Shown here piece by piece: positions 33,795 to 52,201 of a stretch of 64,000 bases of DNA. The position numbers and the translations under genes are program-made. The first letter of the stretch is position 1, and each line of letters starts with the position of its first letter. Origin of the DNA: Roseibacillus sp. (GTDB taxonomy: Bacteria; Verrucomicrobiota; Verrucomicrobiia; Verrucomicrobiales; Akkermansiaceae); the NCBI GenBank assembly GCA_965242925.1, contig CBDEUM010000037.1, positions 32,001 to 96,000 on the forward strand, read 5' to 3'. The notes beneath the pieces were generated by a model. That model did no database searches, was not told the origin of the DNA, and saw only the letters and a list, made by a program, of their open reading frames with translations.

Positions 33795-33825
33795 GCCCGT
33801 GGCTCCGGTCACGGGCTCTTTTTTT
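33795..33825 (+). terminator. Intrinsic terminator after the ThuA gene
   Basis: GCCCGTGGC-TCCG-GTCACGGGC stem (one G-U pair) followed by TCTTTTTTT. Confidence 0.8.
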
Positions 33826-34191: not shown

Positions 34192-34222
34192 TCCCCAAGG
34201 AAAGCCCTCCCCAAGGAAAGCC
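34192..34222 (+). repeat. 15-bp direct repeat just before the actA start
   Basis: TCCCCAAGGAAAGCC at 34192-34206 and 34208-34222. Confidence 0.9.
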
Positions 34223-34223
34223 A

Positions 34224-34940
34224 ATGGCCAATTTCTTCCCGCGTTGGACGAACATTTTGCCGCTTAAGATAGCGGTTTGCCTTGGAGTTGCCGGGGCCGG
34301 AGTGGTGGTGGGATTTACCTACTACGCCACCCCGAAGGCACAGCGGGTTGGTTACATGCCGGCCCAACCCATTCCCTACGATCACTCATTGCACGTGAAT
34401 CAGTTGGGGATGGACTGCCGCTACTGCCACAGCTTCGTGGAGCATTCGAGCCATGCCAACGTTCCATCCGCCAATACCTGCTGGAATTGCCACCAGCATA
34501 TTCGCAAGGACAGCGAGAAGCTCAGGCCTCTGCGCCGGGCCTTCGACAAGGACTACGCGGAGTACGATGGTGAGCCCATCAAGTGGGTAAGGGTGCACAA
34601 GAATCCTGACTACGTCTTCTTTAACCACTCGGCTCACGTGAACCGTGGGGTGTCCTGCAAGTCCTGTCACGGGAAGGTGAACGAGATGGAGGTTGTCTAC
34701 CAGGCCGAGCCGCACTCGATGGGATGGTGTCTCGACTGCCACCGCAACCCGGAGAACCACCTTCGTCCGCTGGAAGAGGTCTTCAACCTCGACTACGACG
34801 CGGAGGAATGGCTGGCCGAAAACAAACTTCTGCATCCCGAGTCCGGCAAGGAGCTCAAGACTCAGAAGGACCTCGGCCTCTACCTCAAGGAGCACTGGAA
34901 CATCAAGGCCAAGGAGAGCTGTTCGACTTGTCATCGTTAG
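34224..34940 (+). CDS. actA: Alternative complex III pentaheme cytochrome c
   Basis: N-terminal TM helix; CRYCH, CWNCH, CKSCH, CLDCH, CSTCH. Confidence 0.92.
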   Translation: MANFFPRWTNILPLKIAVCLGVAGAGVVVGFTYYATPKAQRVGYMPAQPIPYDHSLHVNQLGMDCRYCHSFVEHSSHANVPSANTCWNCHQHIRKDSEKLRPLRRAFDKDYAEYDGEPIKWVRVHKNPDYVFFNHSAHVNRGVSCKSCHGKVNEMEVVYQAEPHSMGWCLDCHRNPENHLRPLEEVFNLDYDAEEWLAENKLLHPESGKELKTQKDLGLYLKEHWNIKAKESCSTCHR

Positions 34941-34943
34941 ACC

Positions 34944-37900
34944 ATGAGTAAACGGACCTGGCATCATCCGGAGATTCCCGCAGACGACGCGGGCATCGTG
35001 TCGTGGCGCAGTGTGGGTGAACTCGAGCGCAGTTCGGCCTTCCAAGCGCACCTGGAGCGTGAATTCCCGGAGGGCTCCGGCTACCTGAGCGAGGAAGACC
35101 GGCAGGCCACGCGGCGCAGCTTCCTCAAGCTCATGGGTGCGTCCTCGGCCCTGGGTGGGTTGACGCTGGTGTCGTGTCGACGGCCGGAATCCTATATCGT
35201 GCCCTACAAGAAGGCGCCGGAGTGGGTCATACCCGGAAAGCCACTCTACTATGCTTCCAGCCGTCCCCGGGCGGAGGGTTCCGTGCCCCTGGTAGTGACC
35301 ACCTTTGAGGGTCGACCCACCAAGCTGGCGCCCAATGGCGACCACAACGATGGGTGCGGCGCTGACGCCCTGACCCAGGCATCCGTTCTCAACCTTTACG
35401 ATCCCAAGCGCTCCCGTGACTTTCTGAAGGGTGGGAAGAAGGCTTCGCAGAAGGAATTTGAGGGCGTGTTTGCCTCCGTCGCGAGGGAGGGAGGCAAGCT
35501 TGCCGTCCTGGTGGGTGAAGACGACTGTCCGACCCGCAATCGCCTGAAGGGTGAGGTTGAGGCAGCATTTCCGGGTTCAAAGTTCTACAGCTACGAGGCC
35601 CTGCGGGGCGAGGCGCGCCGCAGGGTGCACGCCGAGGTGTTCGGAGACGGAACGGAGACCGTGGTCGACTTCTCGAAGGCGGATCGCATCCTTTCGCTGG
35701 ACTGCGACTTCCTCGGGATCGATCCGATGGGGAAGGCATCGGAGTTTTCCAGGAAACGGCAGGGAGGGGGAGAAGATTACCGGCAGGGTATCGATGCGGA
35801 GGCCATGAACCGGCTCTACGCGGTGGAGACGGCCTACAGCCTGACCGGCGGGATGGCCGATCATCGCCTGCGGGCCAGGCCGAGTCAGGTTGCGAGGATT
35901 GCGGCACAGCTTGCAGCGGAGCTTGGGGTAGCGGTGGATGGTTACGAGGCGGGCAGGATGTCTGCCGAAGAGAAGGCAGGCCTGTTAGGAGACGCGAAGA
36001 CCTTTGACGAGTGGATCAGGGGTTGCGTGGATGATCTCAGGGCGAGTGAGGGCAAGGCCGTGGTTCTGGCCGGAAGTCGTCACGGCGAGGAACTGCAGCG
36101 CATTGTCATCGCCATCAACAAAAAGATCGGGGCCTATGGGGGTCCGCTGGTGGTTTACCAAACGGGACGGGAGGGCTACGGCACGATTGAGGAGTTTGAA
36201 AAGGACATCGATTCCGACACCACCATCCTTCTCCTGGGATCAGCCAACCCGGTCTATGATCGTCCGGGTGGAAGATTCGCCGATCTGCTTAATCGGGCCA
36301 AACTGAGCATCCATCTGGGCTTGCGCACGGATGCCACCGCATTGGCCAGCGACTGGCATATTCCGGCCGCGCACTATCTTGAGACTTGGGGGGACACCCG
36401 CACCGCGAGCGGAATCTACTCGCTGGTGCAACCGATGATCCTGCCGCTCTACGGAGGACACTCGGAGCTCGAGATTCTCTCGCAGCTCCTTTCCTGGAAG
36501 GCGTTTGACTGGGCCAAGGTCGAGAGTGAGGACCCGGAGAAAAGGATCGCAGCTCCTGCGCTTATCGCGGGGGAGGGGTCGGGAGGGGAGCCCTCGCCGG
36601 CCCTGGCCGAAGTGCGCAGGACCTTCGCCCTGCCCGGGAATGCCAATGACGAGGGAGAGGTCGAATGGAAGGAGGCGCTCAGGGACGGCTACCTTCGCAG
36701 TAGTTCCTACCAGAGCATCGATGCCGAGAAGGCAGAGGACGCCGCGCCTGTGCTCAGTGCAGTCAAGTCGGACGGGATCGAGATCAATTTCCTCGCCGAT
36801 GCTTCAGTGTGGGACGGTCGCTATATCGACAACGGCTGGCTACAGGAGGCCCCGGATCCCATTTCAAAACTTTCCTGGGATAACGCGGCGCTCGTTTCGC
36901 CCAAGACAGCCAAGGCTCTCGGGGTTTACGATGCGGTCCAGGAACTGGAGCCTGAAAGCGAAATCCCGCTCCTGGGCAAGGTCAAGAATGCACCCAAACC
37001 GCTCATTGATGAGGGAAAGAATGCGCGGGCGCCCATGGCGCTTATCAAGACCGTGGCGGGACGGATGGAAATTCCGGTCCTGGTGGCTTTCGGTCATGCT
37101 GACGACTGCATCTCGATTGCGCTTGGCTATGGACAGGGAGCTTCCGATAAGCGTGACGGGGTGGACGTGGCCAGCGAGGATGATCCATACGCCCCCGTTG
37201 GGCTCGTGGGGATTAACACCGGGTTCAATGCCAACCAGTTGCGCGGGAATGCTTCTTTCAGTGCGGTGGCCATGGAGGTCACGAAGGTGAAGGAACGGTA
37301 TCACGTCGCCCTGGTGCAGGAGCATAACGCCATGAATGGCCGGGCATTGGCCCGCGAGGTTTCCACGAAGGATGTCGCACATCACGGACACAAGCTCTCC
37401 TTTGAAAAGCAGGTTTCCAAGGTGCGTGTGCAGGGGCCCGTTGATTCACACGCTCCCGAAAATATTTCACTCTATAAACGTCGTGGATCGACGACCTGGG
37501 AGAGTGACAGTGACAAGCAGGAGGATCTCATCAGTGACAAGATCCACCAGTGGGGCATGTCGATCGACCTCAACACGTGTATCGGGTGCAACGCGTGTCT
37601 GATCGCCTGTCAGGCGGAGAACAACATTCCGATCGTGGGCAAGGAACAGGTTGCGATGGGGCGCGAGATGCACTGGATCCGCATGGACCGCTACTTTGCA
37701 GCTCCCATGGCTGAAACGGACGAAAAGACCCACAAGAAAGTGTCCACCCCCGAATGGATACAGGAAAACCCTGAGATGATTCCCCAGCCGGTTGCCTGCA
37801 TGCAGTGCGAAAACGCGCCCTGCGAGACCGTCTGCCCCGTCAATGCCACCGTGCACACCGAGGAAGGCCTCAATGCAATGGCCTACAACCGTTGTATCGG

Positions 37901-38504
37901 CACCCGCTATTGCGCCAACAACTGCCCCTACAAGGCGCGGCGCTTTAACTATTTCGACTATAATAAACGCAACCCACTCATCGACCACAACCTCTACAAG
38001 GGGCCCTTCGGCGAGACGCAGGTGGGCAAGGCTCCTCATCTCCAGCGGAATCCCAACGTCTCGGTCCGTATGCGCGGGGTGATGGAAAAGTGCACCTACT
38101 GCGTGCAGCGCTTGGAAAGTGCCAAGATCAAGCAGAAGCAGATCGGGCGTCACAAGACGCTGCGGGCGGGAACCGAGTCCACCGCGGTATCGATCAGTGC
38201 GGAGGACCTGCGGATCAAGGCGGACTCAGTCAAGGTGGCGTGCCAGGAGGCGTGCGAAGCCAACGCCATCAGCTTCGGCAACCTCCTCGACAAGGAGGAC
38301 GCGCAAGTCTGGCGTTCCAAGTACAAGGGAGAGAAAAAGAACAAGGACGGGATAATTGAAGTCATCCACAACCCGCGCAACTACGATGTCCTGCAGTATA
38401 TCGGGACTGCTCCGCGCACCAGCTATCTCGCCCGCGTGAAGAACCCCAACCCGGCCATGCCCGATGCCGCCTACCGCGGCCTGGCCACGATCCACACTGC
38501 CTGA
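34944..38504 (+). CDS. actB: Alternative complex III subunit B (molybdopterin-oxidoreductase-like fold plus Fe-S domain)
   Basis: TRRSFLKLMG Tat motif, EGRPTK, CIGCNACLIAC, CMQCENAPCETVCP, CIGTRYCANNCP, EKCTYC. Confidence 0.93.
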   Translation: MSKRTWHHPEIPADDAGIVSWRSVGELERSSAFQAHLEREFPEGSGYLSEEDRQATRRSFLKLMGASSALGGLTLVSCRRPESYIVPYKKAPEWVIPGKPLYYASSRPRAEGSVPLVVTTFEGRPTKLAPNGDHNDGCGADALTQASVLNLYDPKRSRDFLKGGKKASQKEFEGVFASVAREGGKLAVLVGEDDCPTRNRLKGEVEAAFPGSKFYSYEALRGEARRRVHAEVFGDGTETVVDFSKADRILSLDCDFLGIDPMGKASEFSRKRQGGGEDYRQGIDAEAMNRLYAVETAYSLTGGMADHRLRARPSQVARIAAQLAAELGVAVDGYEAGRMSAEEKAGLLGDAKTFDEWIRGCVDDLRASEGKAVVLAGSRHGEELQRIVIAINKKIGAYGGPLVVYQTGREGYGTIEEFEKDIDSDTTILLLGSANPVYDRPGGRFADLLNRAKLSIHLGLRTDATALASDWHIPAAHYLETWGDTRTASGIYSLVQPMILPLYGGHSELEILSQLLSWKAFDWAKVESEDPEKRIAAPALIAGEGSGGEPSPALAEVRRTFALPGNANDEGEVEWKEALRDGYLRSSSYQSIDAEKAEDAAPVLSAVKSDGIEINFLADASVWDGRYIDNGWLQEAPDPISKLSWDNAALVSPKTAKALGVYDAVQELEPESEIPLLGKVKNAPKPLIDEGKNARAPMALIKTVAGRMEIPVLVAFGHADDCISIALGYGQGASDKRDGVDVASEDDPYAPVGLVGINTGFNANQLRGNASFSAVAMEVTKVKERYHVALVQEHNAMNGRALAREVSTKDVAHHGHKLSFEKQVSKVRVQGPVDSHAPENISLYKRRGSTTWESDSDKQEDLISDKIHQWGMSIDLNTCIGCNACLIACQAENNIPIVGKEQVAMGREMHWIRMDRYFAAPMAETDEKTHKKVSTPEWIQENPEMIPQPVACMQCENAPCETVCPVNATVHTEEGLNAMAYNRCIGTRYCANNCPYKARRFNYFDYNKRNPLIDHNLYKGPFGETQVGKAPHLQRNPNVSVRMRGVMEKCTYCVQRLESAKIKQKQIGRHKTLRAGTESTAVSISAEDLRIKADSVKVACQEACEANAISFGNLLDKEDAQVWRSKYKGEKKNKDGIIEVIHNPRNYDVLQYIGTAPRTSYLARVKNPNPAMPDAAYRGLATIHTA

Positions 38505-38523
38505 ACGAGGGCTCTGAAAACTC

Positions 38524-40017
38524 ATGGCAGACACCGCTACCAAGACTACGGGTGAGGCGCCCGCGCCCCGGGAGGTAAAACTTCCGGTGCTGGAGCGTGA
38601 GAAGCTCGTTCTCAACAAGCGCTCCTACCATTGGATCACGGAACGTGTGTGCGGTGTGGTCGAGAACAAGCAGCCCATGGTCTGGTGGGCACTCTTTATT
38701 CCCACCATCCTCATGGCCATCATCGGGGTGGGTGGCGGCCTGATCTACCTGGTCACCACCGGGGTGGGGGTGTGGGGTAACACCAACCGGGTGATGTGGG
38801 GCTGGCCCATCGTGAACTTCGTGTTCTGGATTGGAATCGGCCATGCCGGAACACTCATTTCCGCCATTCTCTTCCTCACCCGGCAGAACTGGCGGACGTC
38901 CATCAACCGCGCGGCGGAAGCGATGACGATCTTTGCCGTGATTTGTGCCGGTATTTTTCCGGCCTTCCACGTGGGAAGGGTCTGGATGGCCTGGTACCTC
39001 GCGCCCATTCCCAACGCCAACGCGGTGTGGCAGAATTTCAAGTCCCCACTCCTCTGGGATGTTTTCGCGGTCTCAACCTACTTCTCAATTTCGCTGGTGT
39101 TCTGGTTCCTCGGGATGGTGCCCGACCTGGCCACCATCCGGGACCGCTGTAAGCGGGGAGTGAAGAAGGCGCTCTACGGCATCTTCTCGCTGGGCTGGCG
39201 GGGCAGCAATCGCCACTGGAGCCACTATGAGATGGCCTACCTCATCCTGGCGGCTCTTTCTACCCCTCTCGTGCTTTCCGTGCACTCGGTGGTGAGTTTC
39301 GACTTTGCCACTTCGATAGTTCCCGGCTGGCATACCACTATCTTCCCGCCCTATTTCGTGGCGGGTGCCATTTTCGGCGGCTTCGCCATGGTGCTGACCA
39401 TCATGATCCCGGCCCGGTTTTTCTATGGCTTGGATGACATGATCACCATGAAGCACATCGACAACATGGCCAAGATCATCCTGCTGACGGGAACAATCGT
39501 TGGCTATGCCTACCTGATGGAGCTTTTCGTAGCCTTCTACTCGGGTGCCAAGTATGAGATGGCCGCTTTCACCTACCGCATTACCGGACCCTACTGGTGG
39601 GCTTACGTGGCCATGATGAGTTGCAACGTGCTATCTCCCCAACTCTTCTGGTTCAAGCGGTGTCGCGAAAACCTCTGGGTCGTGATGGGCGTCTGCATGG
39701 CAGTCAATGCCGGGATGTGGTTCGAGCGCTTTGTCATCATCGTCACGACTCTGGCCCGCGACTTCATGCCCGCCAACTGGAAGTACTACAATCCGAGCTG
39801 GGTGGACATTGGTCTCTTTCTTGGCACAATTGGGCTGTTCACGTCGCTCTTCCTGCTCTTCCTGCGCTTCCTGCCGTGTATCAATATCGCGGAGGTCAAG
39901 TGGGCCAAGCAAGAGAGTGACGTTCACTTTGACGACAAGAAGGCGCACCCGGATGAGGGCACGGTGGTGGAGGCCTCTTACCAACACGAACTTGATAACG
40001 GAACTGCCGAAGTCTGA
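38524..40017 (+). CDS. actC: Alternative complex III NrfD-like quinol-oxidising subunit
   Basis: [55 protein letters not shown]. Confidence 0.95.
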
Positions 40018-40574: not shown

Positions 40575-40583
40575 GGTGATATC

Positions 40584-41282: not shown

Positions 41283-41290
41283 TTTCCGGC

Positions 41291-42628
41291 ATGGCACATC
41301 ATCTAGTCACATCGGCAGATATCCCCGTCGACGGCGAAAAGCTGGCAGTCGACAAGGTGAGCCGCATCAGGCTGATCTGCCTGATGGTGGCGATTGCCGG
41401 GGCGTTGGTGAGCGTGCCGGCCCTTCTTGGTGTCTTCGGCCGTGGGGTGCAGGGATCCTACAGCTTCTCGTGGCTCTACGGCTTCTTCTTCTTCACCACT
41501 CTGGCTCTGGGTGGCTGCTTCTGGACCCTCCTCCACAATATCACCAACTCCGGGTGGGGTGTTTCGGTGCGCCGTGTGATGGAAAACGTGGGCTACGTCT
41601 TTCCCTGGATGTTGATCCCGGTTCTGCCGATTCTCCTATTGCCGCAGGTTCAGGAGTTTCTCTACGAGTGGATGGAGAAGCACCGGATGGCCAAGGACGT
41701 CGCCGGCTCAGTCAAGGAGGGCCTGCACCACGGCGAAACTGCCGACCACCTTCTCTCCAGCAAGTACTGGTATCTAAACCTCAACTTCTGGTACTTCCGT
41801 GTCATCGCCTATTTTGCCGTCCTCGGGTTCGTTATCCACTTCCTGCGCAAGCTCTCGATTGACCAGGATAATGATCCCGAACCGGGAACGAGCCGTCTCC
41901 TGCGGGCGCGCTTTCATTCCTGTTGGGGCGTGCCTGTATTTGCCGTGGTGCTGACTTTCCTGGCCATTGATCTTGTCAAGGGGCTCGACTACAAGTGGTT
42001 TTCCACCATGTGGGGTGTCTACGTCTTTGCTGGCAGCGCCCTCAATGCGATGGCGGTGATCATCCTGGTCACTATCGCGCTGCGCGGGATGGGCTATTTC
42101 AGGAACGTGGTTGGTCCTGAGCATGACCACCTGATGGGGAAACTGGCTTTTGCCTTCACGGTTTTCTGGGCCTACATCTCCTTTGACCAGTATTTCCTCT
42201 ACTGGTACGCCAACATTACCGAGGAGACCCGTTACTTCGTCCTGCGCAATACCGGGGGCTGGAACTATGTCAGTATCATCCTGGTGTTTGGACACTTTGC
42301 GGCACCCTTCCTTCTCCTCATCCGTCAGGATCTCAAGCGCAGGAACGGTTACATGATTGTGGTGGCGGGCTACCTGCTCTTCATGCACATGATCGATGTT
42401 TATCACATGATCATTCCTGAGCGTGGTCCTTCCGTGACCAAGATCCTTAATCCGGAGAATCCCGAGAAGTGGCAGCTCTGGCTCAATGGCTCCTTTATGG
42501 GGGACGTCATCGCCTTTGTCACAATCGGGTGCTTTTTCCTCTTCGTTCTCCTGCGTAATATCGGATCGGCCGCGCTTTACCCACACCGGGATCCGCGCAT
42601 TCTTGAGTCAGCCAATGTGCACAACTGA
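41291..42628 (+). CDS. actF: Alternative complex III subunit F
   Basis: About ten TM helices, SGWGVSVRR, WFSTMWG, FWAYISFDQYFLYWYANITEET. Confidence 0.9.
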   Translation: MAHHLVTSADIPVDGEKLAVDKVSRIRLICLMVAIAGALVSVPALLGVFGRGVQGSYSFSWLYGFFFFTTLALGGCFWTLLHNITNSGWGVSVRRVMENVGYVFPWMLIPVLPILLLPQVQEFLYEWMEKHRMAKDVAGSVKEGLHHGETADHLLSSKYWYLNLNFWYFRVIAYFAVLGFVIHFLRKLSIDQDNDPEPGTSRLLRARFHSCWGVPVFAVVLTFLAIDLVKGLDYKWFSTMWGVYVFAGSALNAMAVIILVTIALRGMGYFRNVVGPEHDHLMGKLAFAFTVFWAYISFDQYFLYWYANITEETRYFVLRNTGGWNYVSIILVFGHFAAPFLLLIRQDLKRRNGYMIVVAGYLLFMHMIDVYHMIIPERGPSVTKILNPENPEKWQLWLNGSFMGDVIAFVTIGCFFLFVLLRNIGSAALYPHRDPRILESANVHN

Positions 42629-43419: not shown

Positions 43420-43437
43420 CTTAACGGATGTTTTTTC

Positions 43438-44934
43438 ATGGCCTCTGATAGTAATAGCGAGACGACGAATCCTGAGGATCTGGAGTTGTGTGCGCGGATT
43501 GACCGCTCGCTGCGGCAGCCCGTCATGTTCTTCTTTGCCAGTGGGGCGGTATGGTTGGCGGTGGCGCTCATCCTTGGCTTCATTTCCTCCTACCAGTCAC
43601 ATGACACCGGGTTCCTTGCGGAATCCGGAATTTTCAATTACGGAAGGGTTTATCCAGCCCACGTGAATGTTCTCGTTTATGGGTGGGGATGCCAGGCGGC
43701 CTTCGGGCTCATCGTCTGGCTCATGGCACGGCTTTCGCGTAAGGAGTGCAGTTCGGTTGGAATAATCCTGACGGCGGGACACGTTTGGAATTTCGGGGTC
43801 CTGGTCGGGATGCTGGGTATTTTGGGAGGTTACGGATCCGGTAAACCCTGGATGGAATTCCCCGTCGCGATCTGGCCGCTCCTTCTGGTGAGCTACTTCT
43901 TTATAACAGTGTGGTCCTTTATCCAGTTCCGTTGCAGTGAAGGAGGTAAGACCTATGTGGCTCAGTGGTATCTGGTGGCCAGTCTCTTCTGGTTTCCGTG
44001 GGTCTATCTGACCGCGCATCTTTTTGTCTTTGCTTTCAACGGTCATCCGGTGATGGCAGCCGGGGTCAATGCCTGGTTTAAATATGCCCTCATCTTTCTC
44101 TTCTTCACTCCGGTCGCACTGGGCACGGCGTATTACCTTGCGCCCAAGATCACGGGCCGCCCGATATATAGCTATTCCCTGGCTCTCTTCGGTTTCTGGG
44201 CCCTGGCGGTAATCGGCCCCTGGGCCGGCATGCAGAAGTTGGCAGGCGGACCGCTTCCACAGTTTATGCCATACGTCGGAGCTGCGGCTACGGTCCTCAT
44301 TCTCATCCCGGCCCTTGCGGTAGGGGTTAACATCCTGATGACCGTGCGTGGGCATGAATCGGAGGTGGCGGCCAGTCCTTCCCTGCGCTTTACCATCGCC
44401 GGGATCGTGGCCTTTGTTGTGCTCGGCCTGATGGGGATGGGACTGAACACGCCCGGGGTGCTCAAGATGACGCAGTTTACTCTTACCGGCTACGGGTTTG
44501 AGATCCTGGCAGTTTACGGGTTCTTCAGCATGTGTGCCTTCGGGGGCATTTATTTTATCGTGCCGCGGATCACCCGTCGCGAGTGGCTCTCGCGACGTTT
44601 TATTGCCTGGCACTTCTGGCTCACCACCTACGGTATTGGCACGGTGGTAGTCTGCTCGATCATGGGGGGATTCTTCCAGGGGGCCGCTCAAGAGGCCTAT
44701 AACCACGCCTGGCACGAGGTTGCCACCCTGAACTATGCCTATACCGTGGGGACCACCGTGGCGTGGAGCTTGATTATTCTCGGCAGTCTTTTCTTCCTTC
44801 TGCATCTCCTTCTGATGTGGGCCCGACTCGGTCGGCGTAGCCAGCATCCCACCCTCCTCAAGGGCAGTCATCACGGGGGATCTCCCCACGGTCCAGACGG
44901 CGATCTCGACGAACTCCAAACCTCGGAAGCCTGA
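43438..44934 (+). CDS. cbb3-type oxidase subunit I (CcoN)-like membrane protein lacking the active-site histidines
   Basis: CcoN landmarks YGRVYPAH, YVAQWY, PKITGRPIYSYSL, WAG, HFWL are present; WYGH, GPHH and GHVH read WFKY, GMQK and GFEI. Confidence 0.85.
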   Translation: MASDSNSETTNPEDLELCARIDRSLRQPVMFFFASGAVWLAVALILGFISSYQSHDTGFLAESGIFNYGRVYPAHVNVLVYGWGCQAAFGLIVWLMARLSRKECSSVGIILTAGHVWNFGVLVGMLGILGGYGSGKPWMEFPVAIWPLLLVSYFFITVWSFIQFRCSEGGKTYVAQWYLVASLFWFPWVYLTAHLFVFAFNGHPVMAAGVNAWFKYALIFLFFTPVALGTAYYLAPKITGRPIYSYSLALFGFWALAVIGPWAGMQKLAGGPLPQFMPYVGAAATVLILIPALAVGVNILMTVRGHESEVAASPSLRFTIAGIVAFVVLGLMGMGLNTPGVLKMTQFTLTGYGFEILAVYGFFSMCAFGGIYFIVPRITRREWLSRRFIAWHFWLTTYGIGTVVVCSIMGGFFQGAAQEAYNHAWHEVATLNYAYTVGTTVAWSLIILGSLFFLLHLLLMWARLGRRSQHPTLLKGSHHGGSPHGPDGDLDELQTSEA

Positions 44935-44939
44935 TCCTG

Positions 44940-45671
44940 ATGACCTTCAAAGCATTCATATCGGCGTTGGCAGCAAGCTTCGGTGTCCCGTGGTTGCTCA
45001 TCATCGTGGTGCCCTTCGGCAAGATGCGGAACCTTGACGCCGTCCATTTCGAAATGGCGGTTGATGGCAAGGACGAGGTCTACGTCCCGCGTCGGTCGGG
45101 ACGGATTACCACTGGCTCTGCCCTCTACGGGGCCAACGGGTGCTACGTATGCCATAGCCAGCTTATCCGGGCGGGCTATGCGGGCTCGGAATTGGGGCGT
45201 CCTGACTGGGCCGGATTCCGGGTCAAGGATGAGAACGGAGTGAGTATTAACACAGCCCGCGAAACCACGCCTTATGACTATGTGGGAGAACCTTTTGCCC
45301 ACATTGGCATCATGCGGATTGGCCCTGATCTGACCAATGTGGCCGGTCGGATTCAGGGCTACCTGGAAGATCCGCTTACCAAGGCGGAATCACCTGAGAA
45401 CTGGCTTTATCTTCATCTATATAACTCCACCCTCAAGACGAGGACTCTTAATAACACGTCGGGATGCCCTCGTCAGACCCACCTTTTTGACGAGCGGGTG
45501 ACATACGGAGAGGGGAGCCCCGAGGCAGTGCCTGGGGTTACCAGGAATGGAGTGGAAGTATTGCCGACCTCGGAGGCCAAGGCTCTCGTAAGTTATCTGC
45601 TTTCTCTCAAAAAAGATGACCCGGTACCCTATTCGATTAATTACAGCCGGGAGAGGAAGAAGGCCGAGTAA
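44940..45671 (+). CDS. cbb3-type oxidase subunit II (CcoO)-like monoheme cytochrome
   Basis: TM anchor, GCYVCHSQLIR, RIGPDLTNV, WLYLHLYN, EAKALVSYLLSL. Confidence 0.85.
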   Translation: MTFKAFISALAASFGVPWLLIIVVPFGKMRNLDAVHFEMAVDGKDEVYVPRRSGRITTGSALYGANGCYVCHSQLIRAGYAGSELGRPDWAGFRVKDENGVSINTARETTPYDYVGEPFAHIGIMRIGPDLTNVAGRIQGYLEDPLTKAESPENWLYLHLYNSTLKTRTLNNTSGCPRQTHLFDERVTYGEGSPEAVPGVTRNGVEVLPTSEAKALVSYLLSLKKDDPVPYSINYSRERKKAE

Positions 45672-45691
45672 CGGACCCAACTAATGCAGTA

Positions 45692-46459
45692 ATGGCTCAT
45701 TCCAAGCAACCAGCTGATTCCAAGCGACCAGACCTTGAGGAAACCACCAACGTGGTGGAGGCCCATGCGGCCCTCCTGAAAACGGGCACGGCCCAGGCTC
45801 GCGAAAAACAAATTGCCGAAACCGGCATGGAACCGGTCTCGCTCTGGGTGTTTCTTGCCAGCGCAGTCGTCCTGCTGGTGGGCGGGGGAGTGCTTGGAGC
45901 AGGGGGAAAACTTTTCGATTACAACCCCCATCCCCAGAACTATACCCGTCCGGAATTTATCAGCGATGCAGACACTGGTCCGACGATTGGTCCCATCCTG
46001 GAAGCACTCACAAAGCGCGGAAAGAACATCTATGCCAAGTGCAGTGGTTGCCACGGGTCGACAGGGAGCGGTGATGGCAATCAGTTCCCGCCCCTTGCAG
46101 GGTCCGACTGGGTGACTGGTAATACCGAGCGTCTTTCGCAGATTATCCTCAACGGACTGAGCGGACCCATTGATGTGGACGGTAAGACCTACAACGGCAA
46201 TATGCCGGCACAGTCTCCGTTGACGGCCGCGGAACTTGCCGCCGTCATGACCTTCGTTCGTAACGAGTTCAACGACGTAGGCGACCTTGTCTCCATCGAG
46301 CAGGCGGCCAATGCGATCAAGATTTACGAGGCCCGGCCCCGGGGGCAAATCACTGTCAAGGAATTGAATTCCAACCACGACAAGATGCTTGAGGGCGAAT
46401 CGATCGATCCTGCCACTACCGTGGACTTTGAAACGCTCAAACCTGCAGCGGCTGAATAA
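45692..46459 (+). CDS. Membrane-anchored monoheme cytochrome c
   Basis: TM helix; CSGCHG, FPPLAGSDWV, YNGNMPAQ. Confidence 0.88.
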   Translation: MAHSKQPADSKRPDLEETTNVVEAHAALLKTGTAQAREKQIAETGMEPVSLWVFLASAVVLLVGGGVLGAGGKLFDYNPHPQNYTRPEFISDADTGPTIGPILEALTKRGKNIYAKCSGCHGSTGSGDGNQFPPLAGSDWVTGNTERLSQIILNGLSGPIDVDGKTYNGNMPAQSPLTAAELAAVMTFVRNEFNDVGDLVSIEQAANAIKIYEARPRGQITVKELNSNHDKMLEGESIDPATTVDFETLKPAAAE

Positions 46460-46477
46460 CGAACCCTAACTTCAAGG

Positions 46478-48355
46478 ATGATGAGCGCAGAAGCGGCAAC
46501 AGATCACGGGCACGATCACCATCACGATCTCCCGTTCTACAAAAAATATATTTGGTCCACTGATCATAAGGTGATTGGGATCCAGTATGGGATAACGGCC
46601 CTGTTGTTCCTTGCCTTCGGCTTCTTTCTCATGATGGTGATGCGCTGGAGCATTGCCTATCCCGAAGAACCCCTCCCGGGCTATCTCAGCTGGGTATTCA
46701 GCGATGAGTGGAAGGCTCGCTGGTTGCAGGACGGGCGGGTCACCGGCGATACCTATAACATGTTCGGTGCCATGCATGGCACCATCATGGTGTTCCTCGG
46801 TATCGTGCCCCTGGGCTTCGCGGCGTTCGGAAATTTTGTCACGCCGCTTCAGATCGGAACGGTGGACATGGCCTTCCCACGCCTCAACATGGTCAGTTAC
46901 TGGTGCTATCTCGCCGGGGGCTTGATCATGTGCGCGAGTTTCTTCATGGAGTCCGGGGCCGCTAAGTCAGGATGGACCAACTACTCACCTCTGGCCAACT
47001 TCGCCGACGGACAGATTGTGAACCAGTTTCTGGCCGGACAGACCCAGTGGCTCCTGGGGATGGTTTTTCTCATCAGCTCATCATTGTTAGGGGCGGTCAA
47101 CTTCCTTACAACCATCATCAACCTGCGAACCAAGGGGATGACCTGGATGCGGATGCCATTCTTCTGCTGGGCCATGCTGGTGACCGGTTTCCTTCTCCTT
47201 CTGGCTTTCCCGCCACTGGAGGTAGCTGCCCTGATGCAGTTAATGGATCGTACGGTAGGATCCAGCTTTTACATGCCCAGCGGTCTCTACACCTCCACCG
47301 CCGGAGTGATCGAGGCTTCCGGAGGAGGCAGCCCGCTCCTGTATCAGCACCTCTTCTGGTTCCTGGGACATCCGGAGGTTTACGTCCTGCTCCTGCCCGC
47401 TATCGCCTGTGTGGCCGAGATCATTCCGGTCAACACACGAAGGCCGCTGTGGGGCTACAGGCCCATGGTCTGGTCGATCGTGATCCTTGGCTTTCTGAGT
47501 TTCGTCGTCTGGGCCCACCATATGTATCTCACCGGTATGGGACCGGTGATTTCCACCTGGTTCCAGACCACCACCGTGATCATCTCGGTGCCATCAGTCA
47601 TCCTCCTGACCTCTATGATCGTATCCCTGTGGGGTGGTTCCATCCGTTTCAACGTTCCCATGCTCTGGGCGATATCCTTCCTGCCCATGTTCGGGATTGG
47701 CGGCCTGACCGGACTGCCGCTGGCCTTCAATCTAGTGGATCTCCACCTGCACGATACCTACTACGTGATCGGCCACTTCCACTACGTCGTGGCGCCCGGG
47801 GTTCTCTTCGGACTCTTCGCCGGCATCTATCACTGGTATCCCAAGATCACGGGGCGACATATGAACACTTTCCTGGGGCATCTTCATTTCTGGCCCTCCC
47901 TCGTGTTCATGAATGTTCTCTTCTTCCCCATGCTTATCCAGGGGATGGCCGGATTCCACCGCCGTTGGTATAACGGAGGAGACGCCTACCTGTCCAAGGC
48001 CGCCGACAGCGAAAATATCTTCGGCAATACCGTGGCGGAGTGGATCCATCTCAACCCTCTCATGACTTTTGGAGCCCTCATGCTGGCCCTGGCCCAGATC
48101 CCCTTCATCATCAACTTCTGGACCAGCCTCTTCATGGGCGAGAAGATTAAGAACGATAATCCCTACGACGCAACGACCCTGGAGTGGGCCACGCCCACGC
48201 CGCCGCCTCACGGCAACTTTACCTTCGACGTGGGAGCCTATCGCGGGCCTTACGAATACAGCCGTGAGGACCATGAGGGTGACTTCTATCCCCAGTGGGA
48301 GGAACCGAGGAGGGACAAGCCCGCCAAGGAACCCGAACCGGAGCCTACTCAGTAA
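46478..48355 (+). CDS. coxA: A1-type heme-copper oxidase subunit I
   Basis: STDHKVIG, MHGTIM, DMAFPRLN, FWFLGHPEVY, WAHHM, HDTYYVIGHFH; all six His ligands present. Confidence 0.95.
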   Translation: MMSAEAATDHGHDHHHDLPFYKKYIWSTDHKVIGIQYGITALLFLAFGFFLMMVMRWSIAYPEEPLPGYLSWVFSDEWKARWLQDGRVTGDTYNMFGAMHGTIMVFLGIVPLGFAAFGNFVTPLQIGTVDMAFPRLNMVSYWCYLAGGLIMCASFFMESGAAKSGWTNYSPLANFADGQIVNQFLAGQTQWLLGMVFLISSSLLGAVNFLTTIINLRTKGMTWMRMPFFCWAMLVTGFLLLLAFPPLEVAALMQLMDRTVGSSFYMPSGLYTSTAGVIEASGGGSPLLYQHLFWFLGHPEVYVLLLPAIACVAEIIPVNTRRPLWGYRPMVWSIVILGFLSFVVWAHHMYLTGMGPVISTWFQTTTVIISVPSVILLTSMIVSLWGGSIRFNVPMLWAISFLPMFGIGGLTGLPLAFNLVDLHLHDTYYVIGHFHYVVAPGVLFGLFAGIYHWYPKITGRHMNTFLGHLHFWPSLVFMNVLFFPMLIQGMAGFHRRWYNGGDAYLSKAADSENIFGNTVAEWIHLNPLMTFGALMLALAQIPFIINFWTSLFMGEKIKNDNPYDATTLEWATPTPPPHGNFTFDVGAYRGPYEYSREDHEGDFYPQWEEPRRDKPAKEPEPEPTQ

Positions 48356-48376
48356 CACTCCTCTAATCCCTGAATT

Positions 48377-50341
48377 ATGGAGATTCCCCATACTGTTACC
48401 GCCCGGAAGGATACCGGCCTTTTTAACGCGAAGGTCGGCATCTGGCTCTTTCTTGCTTCCGAAGTGATGCTGTTCGGTGGGCTGTTCTCGGCTTACGTTT
48501 TCCTGAGGATCTACGCCGACTACCCGTGGCCGGAGCGCGCCCTGCCCATTGTTCCGGGGCTCATAAACACCTTCGTGCTTATCGGTTCGTCCGTCACGGT
48601 GGTCTTTGCCTGGGCATCGCTCAAGATGCGACAGTGGCGGCGCTTCCAGATTTTCATGGCGATCACCATTGGCTGTGCGGCCGTGTTCATGGTTCTCAAA
48701 ACCATTGAGTATAAGGCCAAATGGGGGCACCAGGCCGTGCGCATGGATGACTTCACAATCATCGAAGGGCACGCCCACTACGCCACCATTCTGAGTGACG
48801 GAAAAGTCGAACACTTCCACACAAAGAAGGAAGCAAAGAAGGCGGGAGAAAAGGATGCGGAGGTCGCAAACAAGGCCGCTGCCGCGGCGAAAGGAAAGGA
48901 CGAGGAATCTGGTGGGTCGGGGAAGGCGAATCTCTGGAAGGCCGGGAAGCCCTTCAAGGCCAATGCGCTTCTTTTCAAGCCGGAGACCATCGATTTCTCG
49001 ATGGTGCGGGCACACGAGTCATGGGTCAACGCCATGCTTGAGCAGACCGGGAAGAGAAATTCCAGACTGATCACTGCCGAGGACATCTTCCTCTACGGGC
49101 ACATCGAGGATTACTCGGGAACAAAGAGTGACCCGAGGTCGAGCAAGGAACGCGCCCAGAAGGAGGCCGAGATCGTAAAGGACTACGCCACGGCGGAGGA
49201 AAAGAGGGATCACAAGTTCGGAGAGAACTCCCTCTTCATCCCGGCGGGCACTCCCCTGAGCTATGCTCTTCTTGAGAAATCCCGCCAGGTCTTCGTCGCA
49301 GGCCGTGCCCACAACGCGGAAACCCGGACGGCCATCCTTCGGGAAAAGTGGAAGAGCGTCAGAAGGGATCTGCCGGACGAAAAATACTGGGATCAGGCTC
49401 CCGAGGCCAGGATTGACTCAGCCACCGACCTTGCCGAGCAAGTCGATGAGGAGGGCAATTGCACTGCCGGGAGCAAGGTGGTGTCGCTGGTATCCACCCT
49501 CTCCTTCAGGATGGATCCTCCCCAGCCGATCATCATCAAACGGAGCTGGATCAAGCGCCCCGTCAAGGGACAGGATGGGAGGGCTGAACTCAGGGACGAC
49601 ACATCCCTCAACGCGGGAGACGGAGAGGGTGGGTCCACCGGACTCCTTGAGAGCCCCCTTGCTCTCTCCGTGGATGCCATCGATTTCCGCTGGATGGCCC
49701 AGAAGGCCGAGGAAGCCGGGAATGTTCCGATGGAAGTGATTGAGCAGAGCTGGATCTTCTCGAAGGCCAACAAGAACGGATCGACCTACAAGAAAATCTG
49801 GAAGGTTCACAAGAAGCGCATCGCTGAGCTTGAGCAGCGCCTGATCGACAAATACGGCAAGGACGAGGAAGGGAAACCCAGACGCGTGGCCACCGAGACC
49901 GATCGCTACCGGGTGACCTGGCAGGACTTTATGCACTATGCCCGGGCCGAGCACGACAGGCTCATGCCGGGGGACTCTGGGTTTGACGACCTCCGACCCA
50001 AGTTCTGGAACGGGTTTGCAGGACCGAACCACAAGAACGAGGAAATCCACAAGCTTCACGCCTTCCCCGAATTGGAGATTCCCCATCATAAAGTCTCCCT
50101 GCAGTCGATGTTCACTCCCAAGTGGAATACCTACTACGCGATCTATTTTACCCTGACCGGCCTGCACGGTCTGCACGTGGTGGGTGGAGCCCTTGTCCTG
50201 GGATACTACCTCTTCTTCAGCAAGGGACTCTACCGCAGCGACCCGGAGTGGCTTGCCAACCGGGTGGAGATAGGTGGTCTCTTCTGGCACTTTGTCGATC
50301 TCGTCTGGATCTTCCTCTTCCCGATCCTCTACCTCATGTAA
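48377..50341 (+). CDS. coxC: Heme-copper oxidase subunit III with a large soluble insertion
   Basis: WLFLASEVMLF, NTFVLIGSS, then after ~460 aa YFTLTGLHGLHV and FWHFVDLVWIFLFP. Confidence 0.9.
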   Translation: MEIPHTVTARKDTGLFNAKVGIWLFLASEVMLFGGLFSAYVFLRIYADYPWPERALPIVPGLINTFVLIGSSVTVVFAWASLKMRQWRRFQIFMAITIGCAAVFMVLKTIEYKAKWGHQAVRMDDFTIIEGHAHYATILSDGKVEHFHTKKEAKKAGEKDAEVANKAAAAAKGKDEESGGSGKANLWKAGKPFKANALLFKPETIDFSMVRAHESWVNAMLEQTGKRNSRLITAEDIFLYGHIEDYSGTKSDPRSSKERAQKEAEIVKDYATAEEKRDHKFGENSLFIPAGTPLSYALLEKSRQVFVAGRAHNAETRTAILREKWKSVRRDLPDEKYWDQAPEARIDSATDLAEQVDEEGNCTAGSKVVSLVSTLSFRMDPPQPIIIKRSWIKRPVKGQDGRAELRDDTSLNAGDGEGGSTGLLESPLALSVDAIDFRWMAQKAEEAGNVPMEVIEQSWIFSKANKNGSTYKKIWKVHKKRIAELEQRLIDKYGKDEEGKPRRVATETDRYRVTWQDFMHYARAEHDRLMPGDSGFDDLRPKFWNGFAGPNHKNEEIHKLHAFPELEIPHHKVSLQSMFTPKWNTYYAIYFTLTGLHGLHVVGGALVLGYYLFFSKGLYRSDPEWLANRVEIGGLFWHFVDLVWIFLFPILYLM

Positions 50342-50356
50342 TCATTCTCACCGGCC

Positions 50357-50734
50357 ATGGCTGACACACCCGAAGAAATCAAGAAGGCACAGAAGAAGTA
50401 CCTCCTCATTGGGCTCATCCTCTTTGTCTTCACCGTGGTCACGGTGGCGGTCGCGACCGTGCCGTGGCTTGATTTTGGTGAGCACGGCTTTGACGCCCAG
50501 GACGCCACCATCGGCCTGATCATTGCCACCATCAAGGCCGGCCTGGTGGGCGCAATCTTCATGCACCTCAGTCACGAGAAGAAGACGATCTACGTTCTGA
50601 TCGTAATTGGTATTCTGATGGGGATTTCCCTCATGGGTCTGACTGGCTGGGCCTTTGAGGACCCCATCGAGTACGGGAACAGTGTGGAAGGGGACGGCTT
50701 CTTTAACCCGGAGGTAAAGGCAGAACAGCATTAG
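50357..50734 (+). CDS. coxD: Cytochrome c oxidase subunit IV family protein
   Basis: Three TM helices, IATIKAGLVGAIFMHL. Confidence 0.85.
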   Translation: MADTPEEIKKAQKKYLLIGLILFVFTVVTVAVATVPWLDFGEHGFDAQDATIGLIIATIKAGLVGAIFMHLSHEKKTIYVLIVIGILMGISLMGLTGWAFEDPIEYGNSVEGDGFFNPEVKAEQH

Positions 50735-50743
50735 GGATACGAT

Positions 50744-50947
50744 ATGTCACTGCGCGGCTTCCATATAGTATTCATCATCGTTACGACGTTCCTCAGTCTC
50801 TTTCTGGTGGGGTGGGCATTCTTTCTTGCTCCTGTCAGCGCCGGGGTGATGAGGACCCTGCTCATGGTGGCCGGGATCGTCGGTTCGATCGGGTTTCCCA
50901 TCTACGGGGTCTATTTTTATCGTAAAGCCAGGAAGTTGATTCTCTAG
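50744..50947 (+). CDS. Small two-TM hypothetical protein in the oxidase operon
   Basis: 67 aa, MSLRGFHIVFI, tight spacing to both neighbours. Confidence 0.7.
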   Translation: MSLRGFHIVFIIVTTFLSLFLVGWAFFLAPVSAGVMRTLLMVAGIVGSIGFPIYGVYFYRKARKLIL

Positions 50948-50968
50948 CCAAGCAACCGCGAACAGACC

Positions 50969-51163
50969 ATGCTCCTCGACACACTCCATCTTGCCTGCAG
51001 CACCTGCGCAAAATCCTTCCAGGAGGGCGGTGGTGATGCGGCTGGCTGGTCGATTATTTTCCTGCTGGCCACCATTGTACCCGTTCTCGGAGCGACCGGC
51101 ATCTGCATGGTGCGCATGGTGCGTCGCGAGCGGGAGGCCCTCGATCCGAAATATGTTGAATAG
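50969..51163 (+). CDS. Small single-TM protein with N-terminal CxxC
   Basis: 64 aa, HLACSTC, one TM helix, basic tail; operonic position. Confidence 0.65.
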   Translation: MLLDTLHLACSTCAKSFQEGGGDAAGWSIIFLLATIVPVLGATGICMVRMVRREREALDPKYVE

Positions 51164-51209
51164 GACCAACCTGGTTCGTCCCCTCTCTTACTCTTTTCTC
51201 TGACTAGTT

Positions 51210-52082
51210 ATGCATTTCCTCGCTGACACTCTTGTCGAACACCTGGGTATTCCTGAGAACTACGCCGAGCACGGAGGCAGTGTGGATCACCTGATCGACG
51301 TGGTGCACTGGTTCATGCTCGTGCTCTTCGTGGGTTGGACTGGGTTTTTTCTGGTTGCCTGCTGGAAGTTCTGGCAGCGCCGTCATCCCAAGGCCTCCTA
51401 TCGTGGTGTGCAGAATCATGTGACGACCCATCTTGAGATCGGGGTGGCTATTTTTGAGGCGGTTCTCCTTCTTGGGTTCGCCTTTCCTCTCTGGGCGGAG
51501 CGGACGGACCGTTTCGAGGACATCCAGGCGCAGGATCCCGTGCGAGTGCGCGCCATCGGTTACCAGTTTGGCTGGAATTACCATTATCCGGGTATGGACG
51601 GAAAATTCGGGCGGATCGATCGTCACCTCGTGGAGAAGGCCGGGGATCCGTGTATCGACCCGGAAGATCCCAATGGCTGGGATGACTTTGTCTCTCCCAT
51701 CCTGAGACTTCCCGTGGCTGAACCGGCTATTCTGCAGGTGTCCTCCACGGATGTGATTCATGGCTATGCCATCGTGCCGATGCGGATTCAGCAGGACGCC
51801 ATTCCGGGGACGGACATCCCCATGTGGTTCCGTCCCCTCAAGGAACTCGAAACCAGTGTGGTCTGTGCCCAGCTCTGCGGGGAGGGCCATGGTGACATGG
51901 TGGGAGTGATGCAGGTGGTCAGCAGGGGGGCATACACTTCCTGGATGGAGGAGCAGAGCACCGCGGCCTACGGCCGGAACTCCGAGGAGGCCGGGACTGG
52001 TGGTAAGGTGGAAGAAGAGGACGAGGGTGAACCGGCTGGCGAATCCGAACCAGCTGATGAGCCGAAAGCTGCTGCCGAGTAA
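51210..52082 (+). CDS. coxB: Cytochrome c oxidase subunit II (CuA)
   Basis: Two TM helices, GYQFGW, DVIH, DAIPG, CAQLCGEGHGDM; acidic tail and no fused cytochrome c. Confidence 0.92.
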   Translation: MHFLADTLVEHLGIPENYAEHGGSVDHLIDVVHWFMLVLFVGWTGFFLVACWKFWQRRHPKASYRGVQNHVTTHLEIGVAIFEAVLLLGFAFPLWAERTDRFEDIQAQDPVRVRAIGYQFGWNYHYPGMDGKFGRIDRHLVEKAGDPCIDPEDPNGWDDFVSPILRLPVAEPAILQVSSTDVIHGYAIVPMRIQQDAIPGTDIPMWFRPLKELETSVVCAQLCGEGHGDMVGVMQVVSRGAYTSWMEEQSTAAYGRNSEEAGTGGKVEEEDEGEPAGESEPADEPKAAAE

Positions 52083-52201
52083 TCGAAATTGATCCCACCC
52101 CTCAACCGGGGGATAAGGAGCCCGGGAGGCCCTGTTTTGCGGCTTCTGACAAGGATCAGAAAAAGCTGTTCAAGTGAACAGAACCGGCATCTGCTGAAGT
52201 C

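Follow-up and report, generated by a model that had tools for sequence, protein, structure and literature searches.

An operon of a marine Roseibacillus-like member of the Verrucomicrobiales combines alternative complex III, a non-catalytic C-type oxidase remnant and an A-type oxidase

Alternative complex III (ACIII) has been described together with terminal oxidases in Flavobacterium johnsoniae (ACIII-aa3, PDB 6BTM) and Rhodothermus marinus (ACIII-caa3, PDB 6F0K). The excerpts of PMC5928083 used here describe ACIII gene clusters as often followed by oxidase clusters and, for R. marinus, place ActF at the periphery, its membrane face free, and have the A-type oxidase dock beside ActC; in these and in excerpts of PMC8552683, electron transfer from ACIII to the oxidase in both organisms is direct, without a soluble carrier. 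The window analysed here is a stretch of 64,000 nucleotides from Roseibacillus sp. (assembly GCA_965242925.1, contig CBDEUM010000037.1, positions 32,001 to 96,000), and it holds a single operon of 16 genes, made up of a complete ACIII, a non-catalytic remnant of a C-type oxidase and a complete A-type oxidase; the organism is marine, Roseibacillus-like and belongs to the Verrucomicrobiales. As in the two described systems, actABCDEF come first and oxidase genes follow.

The subject of this analysis is the gene for a CcoN-like protein, referred to as pseudo-CcoN, in the C-type remnant of this operon:

43438..44934, + strand: pseudo-CcoN, 498 aa, homologue of the C-family haem-copper oxidase subunit I; 1/6 metal-ligand His kept

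With slightly better than even confidence, we favour the explanation that pseudo-CcoN has been kept as a membrane subunit of ACIII that positions c-type cytochromes, from which electrons would pass through one of two membrane-anchored cytochromes c (cyt c1 or cyt c2) to the CuA site of the A-type oxidase.

Pseudo-CcoN was homologous to the haem-copper oxidase family over its full length (PF00115, 155 bits, positions 2-435 of 436) and could be aligned to the solved CcoN chains 9g6b_A (E 2.9e-27) and 6xkw_n. In this alignment, the helix II haem b ligand, H75, was the one ligand retained. The CuB His positions were occupied by Y216, Q266 and K267 and the helix X His positions by F354 and I356, while the cross-link Tyr (helix VII, Y.WAG.HH) was replaced by G260 and the Glu of the TFEGP motif by M332. 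The score against the curated ccoN model TIGR00780 was 108.4 bits, far under the cut-off of 583.15. Because the metal-ligand residues have been lost, the protein is predicted to be unable to hold a binuclear centre and, judged by these residues, cannot be an oxidase. The proposal of an earlier note on this DNA, that the CcoN-like module is degenerate and non-catalytic, was thus upheld by the alignment to solved chains.

The extent of ligand loss was followed among homologues. A search with the window protein returned 1662 cluster representatives at E <=0.001, with 307 at <=1e-30; the window protein and 134 of the best 150 representatives of at least 430 aa (16 shorter ones being dropped) gave an alignment of 135 sequences. 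None of the six His ligands was kept in 65 of these sequences, one in 49, two in 13, three in 3, four in 1 and all six in 4. The four ligand-complete sequences include one from the planctomycete Telmatocola sphagniphila and a cluster from Ottowia, Alicycliphilus and Diaphorobacter.

These data bear on whether the CcoN-like protein could still be an oxidoreductase whose cofactors are bound through other residues. H75 is kept in this order, Tyr, Lys and Gln at the CuB positions could in principle bind metal, and some haem-copper families tolerate changed ligands according to excerpts of PMC11214002, namely gNOR and, with His/Met, nNOR (both families of nitric oxide reductase, NOR). However, both helix X His residues are gone (Phe; Ile or Val), one of which is the axial ligand of the catalytic haem, and the cross-link Tyr and active-site Glu are gone as well. 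The replacement residues are not conserved either, all six ligand columns being highly variable across the 135 sequences. We therefore give this explanation hardly any credence. A new NOR family of the nNOR type was also considered and ruled out: nNOR is related to the B family and keeps its ligands in the account of PMC11214002 used here, whereas this CcoN-like protein is without them.

The constant genomic companion of pseudo-CcoN was ACIII, encoded directly upstream by the following genes:

34224..34940, + strand: actA, pentahaem cytochrome c with N-terminal membrane helix; five CxxCH; Cytochrome_C7 and c3 matches; QrcA-like
34944..38504, + strand: actB, fused B1 (molybdopterin-like) and B2 (4Fe-4S) parts with a variant twin-arginine translocation signal; Pfam/NCBIfam
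38524..40017, + strand: actC, NrfD-type quinol-binding membrane subunit; PF03916, 90.7 bits
40017..40574, + strand: actD; PF11821, 194 bits; sole ActD in the genome
40584..41282, + strand: actE, monohaem cytochrome c; one CxxCH; PF13442
41291..42628, + strand: actF, NrfD-like paralogue of ActC by profile comparison; same position in 20/20 loci

The genes actA-F stand in order on one strand, ActB carries the Fe-S part B2 (Fer4 families at residues 870-1002, TIGR04519 at 21-62, QrcC/QrcB-like), ActC and ActF are both NrfD-like, and ActD matches PF11821. ActF gave no Pfam match; its comparison with ActC by hhalign yielded a probability of 94% and E 1e-7 over 337 columns.

Two samples were used to examine the linkage. 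For the first, one 20-kb locus was taken from each of 20 genomes in the window's class. In all 20, genes for a CcoN-like protein, a CcoO-like protein and a cytochrome c lay directly 3' of actF; ActE was monohaem in 20/20 loci and ActA pentahaem in 18/18. The complete set actA-F was visible in 18/20 loci, the two exceptions being genomes of family f2, in which only actE and actF precede the module. In contrast, same-strand cox genes were found downstream of the module in only 7/20 loci, five with degenerate and two with complete CcoN, and seven of the 12 degenerate loci had no adjoining cox genes. The constant partner is therefore ACIII and not the A-type oxidase. The earlier note had taken ACIII, module and oxidase as one arrangement to be surveyed across Verrucomicrobiota; the survey sustained the link between ACIII and the module across the class, and not the link to the cox genes.

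The second sample, the named set, consisted of 80 Verrucomicrobiales genome loci, the best match being Roseibacillus sp. at 76% identity, and also takes in Luteolibacter, Haloferula, Rubritalea and Oceaniferula. Where the flank was long enough, actF lay upstream of the CcoN-like gene in 65/66 loci and coxA downstream in 59/64; all 13 core genes were present in 37/42 loci with full flanks. The full 16-gene order was found in the cultured strains Rubritalea marina DSM 17716, Rubritalea tangerina KCTC 12907 and Haloferula rosea KCTC 22201. The CcoN-like gene was degenerate, and full-length, in 78/79 cases, and relatives carry the source name 'cbb3-type cytochrome c oxidase subunit I', just as had been foreseen in the claim that automated annotation would report two working oxidases. 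Since dead genes are named in this way by their sources, ccoN-based surveys of high-affinity, low-oxygen respiration will over-count this respiration in Verrucomicrobiota.

Across 401 genomes of the phylum, 121 matched the CcoN-like protein at E <=1e-10, and the scores formed two groups. The upper group comprised 92 matches in 91 genomes at >=169 bits, all in the window's class, with the next match at 124 bits; the lower group consisted largely of open reading frames (ORFs) of ~720-920 aa, that is, ordinary fused ccoNO, and the six that were fetched all had six His. ActD was strong in 96 genomes of the class in the same set, and all 91 genomes with the CcoN-like gene were among them. The remaining five all belong to family f8, and three of these have a diverged CcoN-like gene 3-4 kb from actD, one of which (L064) reads SESHFV at the six ligand columns.

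Some side observations concern the same survey. The ACIII-adjacent CcoN-like gene of f8 is very diverged, at about 25% identity, and four f8 genomes (G093, G111, G132, G279) have a second ActD-like match within ORFs of 702-724 aa. In genus g2 of the window's own family (13/28 genomes), small genomes with no CcoN match gave weak ActD-like scores of 34-68 bits, mostly in ORFs of ~400 aa.

All six His were kept in 8/20 loci of the class sample and not in the other 12/20. Loci L004-L032 represent 29 other genomes, in partial overlap with the 20; six His and the Tyr were kept in 18 of these genomes and not in 11. A tree of 80 rows was calculated (IQ-TREE quick search, LG+G4) from the window protein, every third representative together with those having >=3 His, the sequences of the 20 loci and 7 genes for reference, so that about one third of the representatives entered it. 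The ACIII-linked clade was split from the ordinary verrucomicrobial cbb3 genes with a support of 99 in the Shimodaira-Hasegawa-like approximate likelihood ratio test (SH-aLRT), and its basal rows were ligand-complete.

On this tree, >=4 changes between the complete and the degenerate state are required. In one family, the degenerate L038 (AAVNQQ) was sister to the complete L042 (HHHHHH) with a support of 98, the branch lengths being 0.48 and 0.12, and the ligand loss of L038 is judged from these sequences to be recent. The window protein fell into an all-degenerate clade of 14 rows (support 100) with the f1 and f2 loci. Members of this clade have in common that the second CuB position is Gln and the first of helix X is Phe, which fits a single loss in the order's ancestor. 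Read in this way, independent losses of the haem and copper ligands took place several times, one of them in that ancestor. It had been supposed that the module was recruited between ACIII and the aa3 oxidase. That supposition was abandoned, because the trio follows actF in 20/20 loci, of which 8/20 are ligand-complete, so that the dead form arose in place from an ACIII-linked C-type oxidase.

A further observation concerns the ligand-complete ACIII-linked CcoN sequences (L012, L015-L032), none of which had Glu at the TFEGP Glu column in one alignment. In the passages of PMC5492636 used here, Muntyan et al. 2015 (PNAS) is the reference both for C-type sequences of an 'unknown group' and for the Glu as 'mandatory' in authentic cbb3; the ACIII-linked CcoN clade may be this group.

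The dead gene was found to be under selection. Ratios of nonsynonymous to synonymous substitution rates (dN/dS) were determined by the Nei-Gojobori method for three Verrucomicrobiales pairs, from stop-to-stop ORFs and with dS partly saturated:

Dead CcoN-like gene, dN/dS: pair 1, 0.156; pair 2, 0.058; pair 3, 0.145
coxA, dN/dS: pair 1, 0.112; pair 2, 0.061; pair 3, 0.080
actF, dN/dS: pair 1, 0.212; pair 2, 0.086; pair 3, 0.246

The values of the dead CcoN-like gene were near those of coxA and below those of actF in all three pairs, and the subunit is under purifying selection in this order. Across 41 sequences, 24 columns of the CcoN-like protein were invariant and 55 nearly invariant. Reading frames were intact, with no internal stops, among the matches listed in the phylum sample.

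Presence in RNA libraries was examined over positions 33500-52500 with contigs, 95-99% identical to the window, from four marine metatranscriptome runs, which belong to four studies. The contigs covered 29, 29, 28 and 22 of 30 bins. The pseudo-CcoN bins were covered, with a depth of about 4-5.5 in two runs, and in the first bin (33500-34133, ~630 bases upstream) the depth was 0 in 4/4 runs. The earlier note had made expression of the CcoNO-like proteins a condition of its proposal; the gene is present in these RNA libraries, with the reserve that such libraries can hold DNA.

Against this background, the idea that pseudo-CcoN is a decaying relic, without a function of its own and merely carried inside an essential operon, was weighed. 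Degenerate branches are longer than those of their complete sisters, as in L038 and L042, and one degenerate pair in family f6 has a dN/dS of 0.59. Opposed to this are the unbroken frames, the full-length, degenerate copies in nearly all of the named set, the dN/dS of 0.06-0.16 in this order, which is as low as that of CoxA, and the invariant columns; relics within operons are, moreover, normally deleted or broken over such distances. A relic thus seems very improbable. Because a ligand-poor catalytic subunit is still conserved and is found in RNA libraries, it is better regarded as a repurposed part.

The preferred explanation, retention as a membrane subunit of ACIII, would comprise the following steps. 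In the ancestral state, still seen in many relatives, ACIII would have had its own C-type oxidase encoded behind actF; the analogy of the ACIII-caa3 and ACIII-aa3 supercomplexes makes it probable that this oxidase was docked to it. The catalytic centre was then lost in several lineages, and the 12-helix CcoN body was retained. Pseudo-CcoN would now be a structural membrane subunit, still docked to ACIII and holding c-type cytochromes at its electron exit. Electrons would leave ActA/ActE by way of cyt c1 or cyt c2 and enter the A-type oxidase at CuA, and all O2 reduction would be left to that oxidase, encoded downstream. A complex prediction for ActF (alignment A1) with pseudo-CcoN (alignment A2) gave a score of 0.00 in two runs without controls, which is evidence neither way.

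The cytochromes in question are encoded on both sides of pseudo-CcoN:

42628..43419, + strand: cyt c1, membrane-anchored monohaem cytochrome c; one CxxCH; PF00034; extra gene between actF and the CcoN-like gene
44940..45671, + strand: CcoO-like monohaem cytochrome c, 243 aa; CxxCH kept; Cys176 at the axial Met position
45692..46459, + strand: cyt c2, membrane-anchored monohaem cytochrome c, CcoP-like; TIGR00782 (ccoP) 40 bits, below cut-off

The CcoO-like protein matched solved CcoO chains by profile (E 7e-24), and its score against TIGR00781 (CcoO), 27.6 bits, was under the cut-off of 200.65. Exactly one CxxCH was present in 20/20 loci of the class sample and 77/77 named loci; for cyt c2, the corresponding counts were 20/20 and 74/75. 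At the position of cyt c1, the class sample had an ORF in the three f1 loci and in L052, where it is closer to cyt c2. Among ORFs longer than 450 nt matching cyt c1 in the 80 named loci, 42 had one CxxCH, 7 none and 4 two.

Cys176 of the CcoO-like protein aligned with the Met of the S.MP.Y motif in solved CcoO chains, which we take to be the axial haem ligand. Cys stood at this column in 68/73 Verrucomicrobiales sequences and Met in the five more distant ones. In the 20-locus sample, Met was kept in all other lineages, namely f2, seven other degenerate loci and eight complete loci. The CcoO-like haem of this lineage therefore probably has His/Cys ligation. Haems ligated in this way have a low potential and are poor relays from menaquinol to CuA, so the CcoO-like haem is unlikely to lie on the electron route; the change from Met to Cys, read from the alignment, argues against its being an ordinary electron relay in this lineage. 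The suggestion that the module acts as a scaffold or relay may be kept in its first part, for a protein that is catalytically dead, conserved and present in RNA libraries, whereas the Cys speaks against the second.

The same replacement could instead mark a new function, in which the Cys-bearing CcoO-like haem, carried by the dead CcoN, would serve for sensing or catalysis in the periplasm. It might respond to redox state or to a gas, or oxidise sulfur compounds like TsdA or SoxAX, with the neighbouring His/Met cytochrome c passing electrons on. As a rule, c-haems with His/Cys ligation serve in catalysis or sensing and not as relays. Both the alignment of Cys176 with the S.MP.Y Met and the distribution of Cys, with 68/73 in Verrucomicrobiales and Met in every other lineage examined, agree with such a change, as does the presence of cyt c1 ahead of the module in the three f1 loci of the class sample and its absence in the two f2 loci, which keep Met. 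However, two of five Met-type named loci also have cyt c1, neither the operon nor its flanks showed genes for sulfur oxidation or signalling, and Cys ligation is inferred from the alignment only. The proposal would also explain the change in the CcoO-like protein and not the conservation of the 12-helix CcoN body. We hold a new function of this kind to be quite unlikely.

The full form of this proposal, that Verrucomicrobiales have an ACIII-docked, haem-less CcoN with a His/Cys sensory or catalytic c-haem, wired through cytochromes c to an A-type oxidase lacking the K-channel lysine, is given the same low standing. If it were true, a respiratory enzyme would have been converted in situ to a supercomplex module of another function, with a site for, e.g., a reduced sulfur compound or a gas.

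Downstream of the module, the operon continues with the A-type oxidase:

46478..48355, + strand: coxA, A-type (HPEVY) subunit I; PF00115, 435 bits, and residue alignment
48377..50341, + strand: coxC, subunit III split by a soluble insert; two COX3 stretches
50357..50734, + strand: coxD, caa3-type subunit IV family; PF03626 (COX4_pro); TIGR02229, 39.7 bits against a cut-off of 37.25
51210..52082, + strand: coxB, subunit II; COX2 match and alignment to 1m56_B

CoxA keeps the six His ligands, the equivalents of E286, Y288 and D132, and the D-channel Asn residues. At the K-channel lysine position (K362 of R. sphaeroides), it has Leu376, and its score against TIGR02891 (CtaD_CoxA), 552 bits, was under the cut-off of 670.75. 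The K-channel column was Ile or Leu in 63/63 CoxA relatives, while nine other checked positions, including the D132 column, were invariant. An oxidase with HPEVY and all six His intact and without this lysine is atypical, as had been remarked before for this A1-type enzyme. CoxA without the lysine was also found beside a ligand-complete CcoN (L039), and ordinary Lys was present in L040 and L044.

The lysine-less clade has in common an insert of 13 residues ahead of helix VI of CoxA, between FYMPSG and GGGSPLLY, which is absent from the ordinary CoxA of L040 and L044.

CoxC is a subunit III of the five-helix type with an insert of ~460 residues (roughly 117-580), which is conserved and has invariant Trp, Asp, Tyr and Arg columns. 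The insert is predicted to fold with confidence; the model reached a predicted local distance difference test (pLDDT) of 82.2 and a predicted template modelling score (pTM) of 0.75, and a Foldseek search with this model against the PDB matched only the subunit III helices (best E 0.077), leaving the insert without a match. From the membrane topology of five-helix subunit III, the insert would presumably face the periplasm. Aligned to 1m56_B, CoxB has the side chains that bind CuA, namely His, Cys, Cys, His and Met, while the Glu between the two Cys is replaced by Gln; no cytochrome c domain is fused to CoxB.

Only two PF00115 genes were found in the assembly, which is 89.9% complete, both of them in this operon, and no bd oxidase was found in it. 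Because of this, the A-type enzyme appears to be the organism's only terminal oxidase, in agreement with the earlier assertion that it holds the only intact O2-reducing site. An apparent sole oxidase without the K lysine bears on proton delivery to the active site in A-type oxidases.

Elsewhere in the genome, a cytochrome b was detected (PF00033, 141 bits, contig C12:215871-216407, L146, inside a frame of 680 aa), which is a possible second route from quinol to cytochrome c besides ACIII.

Taken further, the gene order could mean that ACIII, pseudo-CcoNO and the A-type oxidase form an obligate supercomplex of three parts, in which the dead module is both bridge and relay to CuA. The common occurrence of the 13 core genes and of a following coxA in the named set agrees with this, as does the finding of no other oxidase in the assembly; the constant lack of the K lysine and the conserved insert of CoxC could be adaptations to a fixed partner. 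This is opposed by the class sample, where same-strand cox genes are mostly missing and more than half of the degenerate loci have no adjoining cox genes. Because L039 pairs a K-less CoxA with a ligand-complete CcoN, the two traits are not tied to each other. A His/Cys haem in the CcoO-like protein would also be too low in potential for a relay from menaquinol to CuA. As for precedent, the excerpts of PMC5928083 establish supercomplexes of ACIII with an oxidase, but that of R. marinus docks beside ActC without a bridge. An obligate three-part complex is thus a serious possibility that we nevertheless consider unlikely.

Several points weigh against retention as an ACIII subunit, the explanation preferred here. 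The change from Met to Cys in the CcoO-like protein (68/73) points to a new haem property, which a pure scaffold leaves unexplained. In f2, actE and actF stay with the pseudo-CcoN and cox genes while actD lies on another contig, and because of this arrangement the operon link to the whole of ACIII is not absolute. Among the 64 named loci whose flank was long enough, 5 had no following coxA. Adjacent genes need not encode proteins that bind each other, and contact of pseudo-CcoN with ACIII or the oxidase is inferred only. As to selection, the form in which dN/dS was obtained, with stop-to-stop frames and partly saturated dS, weakens the comparison, and the f6 pair at 0.59 is under weak constraint, so not every degenerate member need be functional. 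The RNA evidence consists of assembled contigs from libraries that can hold DNA, with the uncovered upstream stretch as the sole control.

The f2 loci (L036 and L037 of G354 and G342; L148, L149) have an aminotransferase gene in place of actA-D. From this arrangement, ActE and ActF are associated with the module and not with the remaining ACIII subunits.

The remaining features concern the layout of the operon:

33795..33816, + strand: terminator-like hairpin and T-run, 3' of the upstream ThuA-like gene; upstream limit of the operon
50744..50947, + strand: small membrane ORF 1, 67 aa; homologue at the same position in most full-length loci
50969..51163, + strand: small membrane ORF 2, 64 aa; homologue at the same position in most full-length loci

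The ORF coordinates form one cluster of 16 genes, all on the + strand, from 34182/34224 to 52082, with every intergenic gap <=46 bp. The order is actABCDEF, cyt c1, CcoN-like, CcoO-like, cyt c2 (CcoP-like), coxA, coxC, coxD, the two small membrane ORFs and coxB. The translations contain nine CxxCH motifs, five in ActA and one each in ActE, cyt c1, the CcoO-like protein and cyt c2. The earlier note had described 16 ORFs in this order with gaps under 50 bp, nine CxxCH motifs in total and no ctaA, ctaB or sco in the cluster; coordinates and motif count were reproduced, and ctaA, ctaB and three SCO-family genes, none of them within the cluster, were located on other contigs. Assembly genes of the ccoGHIS type were not seen in the operon in a Pfam scan of its ORFs.

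The operon is flanked by a ThuA-like gene upstream and a RadC-like gene downstream. The upstream hairpin (33795-33816) has a stem of 9 pairs, 7 of them GC, followed by TCTTTTTTTG. A scan for sigma-70-like promoters gave no site upstream of actA, with three sites in the region against 6.6 expected. Two start codons are candidates for actA, ATG 34224 and the alternative TTG 34182. RNA-library contigs start at 34207 and 34212 in two runs, with a loose end at 34208 in a third, and because of these positions the ATG is the better fit.

Small ORF 2 (50969-51163), between coxD and coxB, has an N-terminal CxxC (CSTC) ahead of a hydrophobic stretch and no family match. At 46469-46472, in the short spacer separating cyt c2 from coxA, one extra C is present in the metatranscriptome contigs from each of two runs, probably through strain variation, the stretch being non-coding.

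Compared with the cbb3 oxidases (CcoN-CcoO-CcoP; PDB 3mk7/5djq, 9g6b, 6xkw), the module has the same order of three genes: the N and O subunits are homologous, the CxxCH of CcoO is kept, and a CcoP-like gene follows. In contrast to cbb3, it lacks 5/6 His ligands, the cross-link Tyr and the TFEGP Glu, and has Cys in place of the axial Met of CcoO; its CcoP-like protein has one haem and not two, and its scores are far under the curated cut-offs. It is also encoded behind actF and not with assembly genes of the ccoGHIS type.

In the systems of F. johnsoniae and R. marinus, ACIII and the A-type oxidase are not separated by a C-type module, whether live or dead. The former has an extra haem domain on ActA and the latter a cytochrome c domain fused to subunit II, whereas in this operon CoxB is without such a domain and separate membrane-anchored cytochromes c are encoded instead. 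In the actinobacterial bcc-aa3 supercomplex (PDB 6adq, 6hwh), a built-in membrane-bound cytochrome c likewise replaces the soluble carrier, and both structures turned up as relatives of CoxA in the comparison of structure sequences. That supercomplex, however, has a bc-type complex III and not ACIII, and no dead oxidase subunit. The c-haems of SoxAX, TsdA and DsrJ are CxxCH haems with Cys as sixth ligand, and the likeness to the CcoO-like protein lies in the ligation suggested by the alignment.

gNOR is also a haem-copper member with a changed active-site His, but one His is replaced there against five of six here, and gNOR is thought to be catalytic in the excerpts of PMC11214002. The same excerpts call the active-site histidines of the superfamily 'completely conserved', and full-text literature searches found no published description of a ligand-less CcoN or of this operon. 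A haem-copper catalytic subunit repeatedly stripped of its cofactor ligands and yet under selection amounts to a natural experiment on non-catalytic roles. Three unusual features meet in the operon: ACIII has a C-type module built in, Cys takes the axial position at the CcoO-like haem, and the A-type oxidase is without the K lysine.

The ligand-complete relatives from other Verrucomicrobiota, Telmatocola sphagniphila and the Burkholderiales Ottowia, Alicycliphilus and Diaphorobacter fall into the same clade as the window protein (SH-aLRT 99) at 31-39% identity to it, and those from Verrucomicrobiota occupy the same position behind actF. Because all six His and the Tyr are kept, these relatives are presumably working oxidases.

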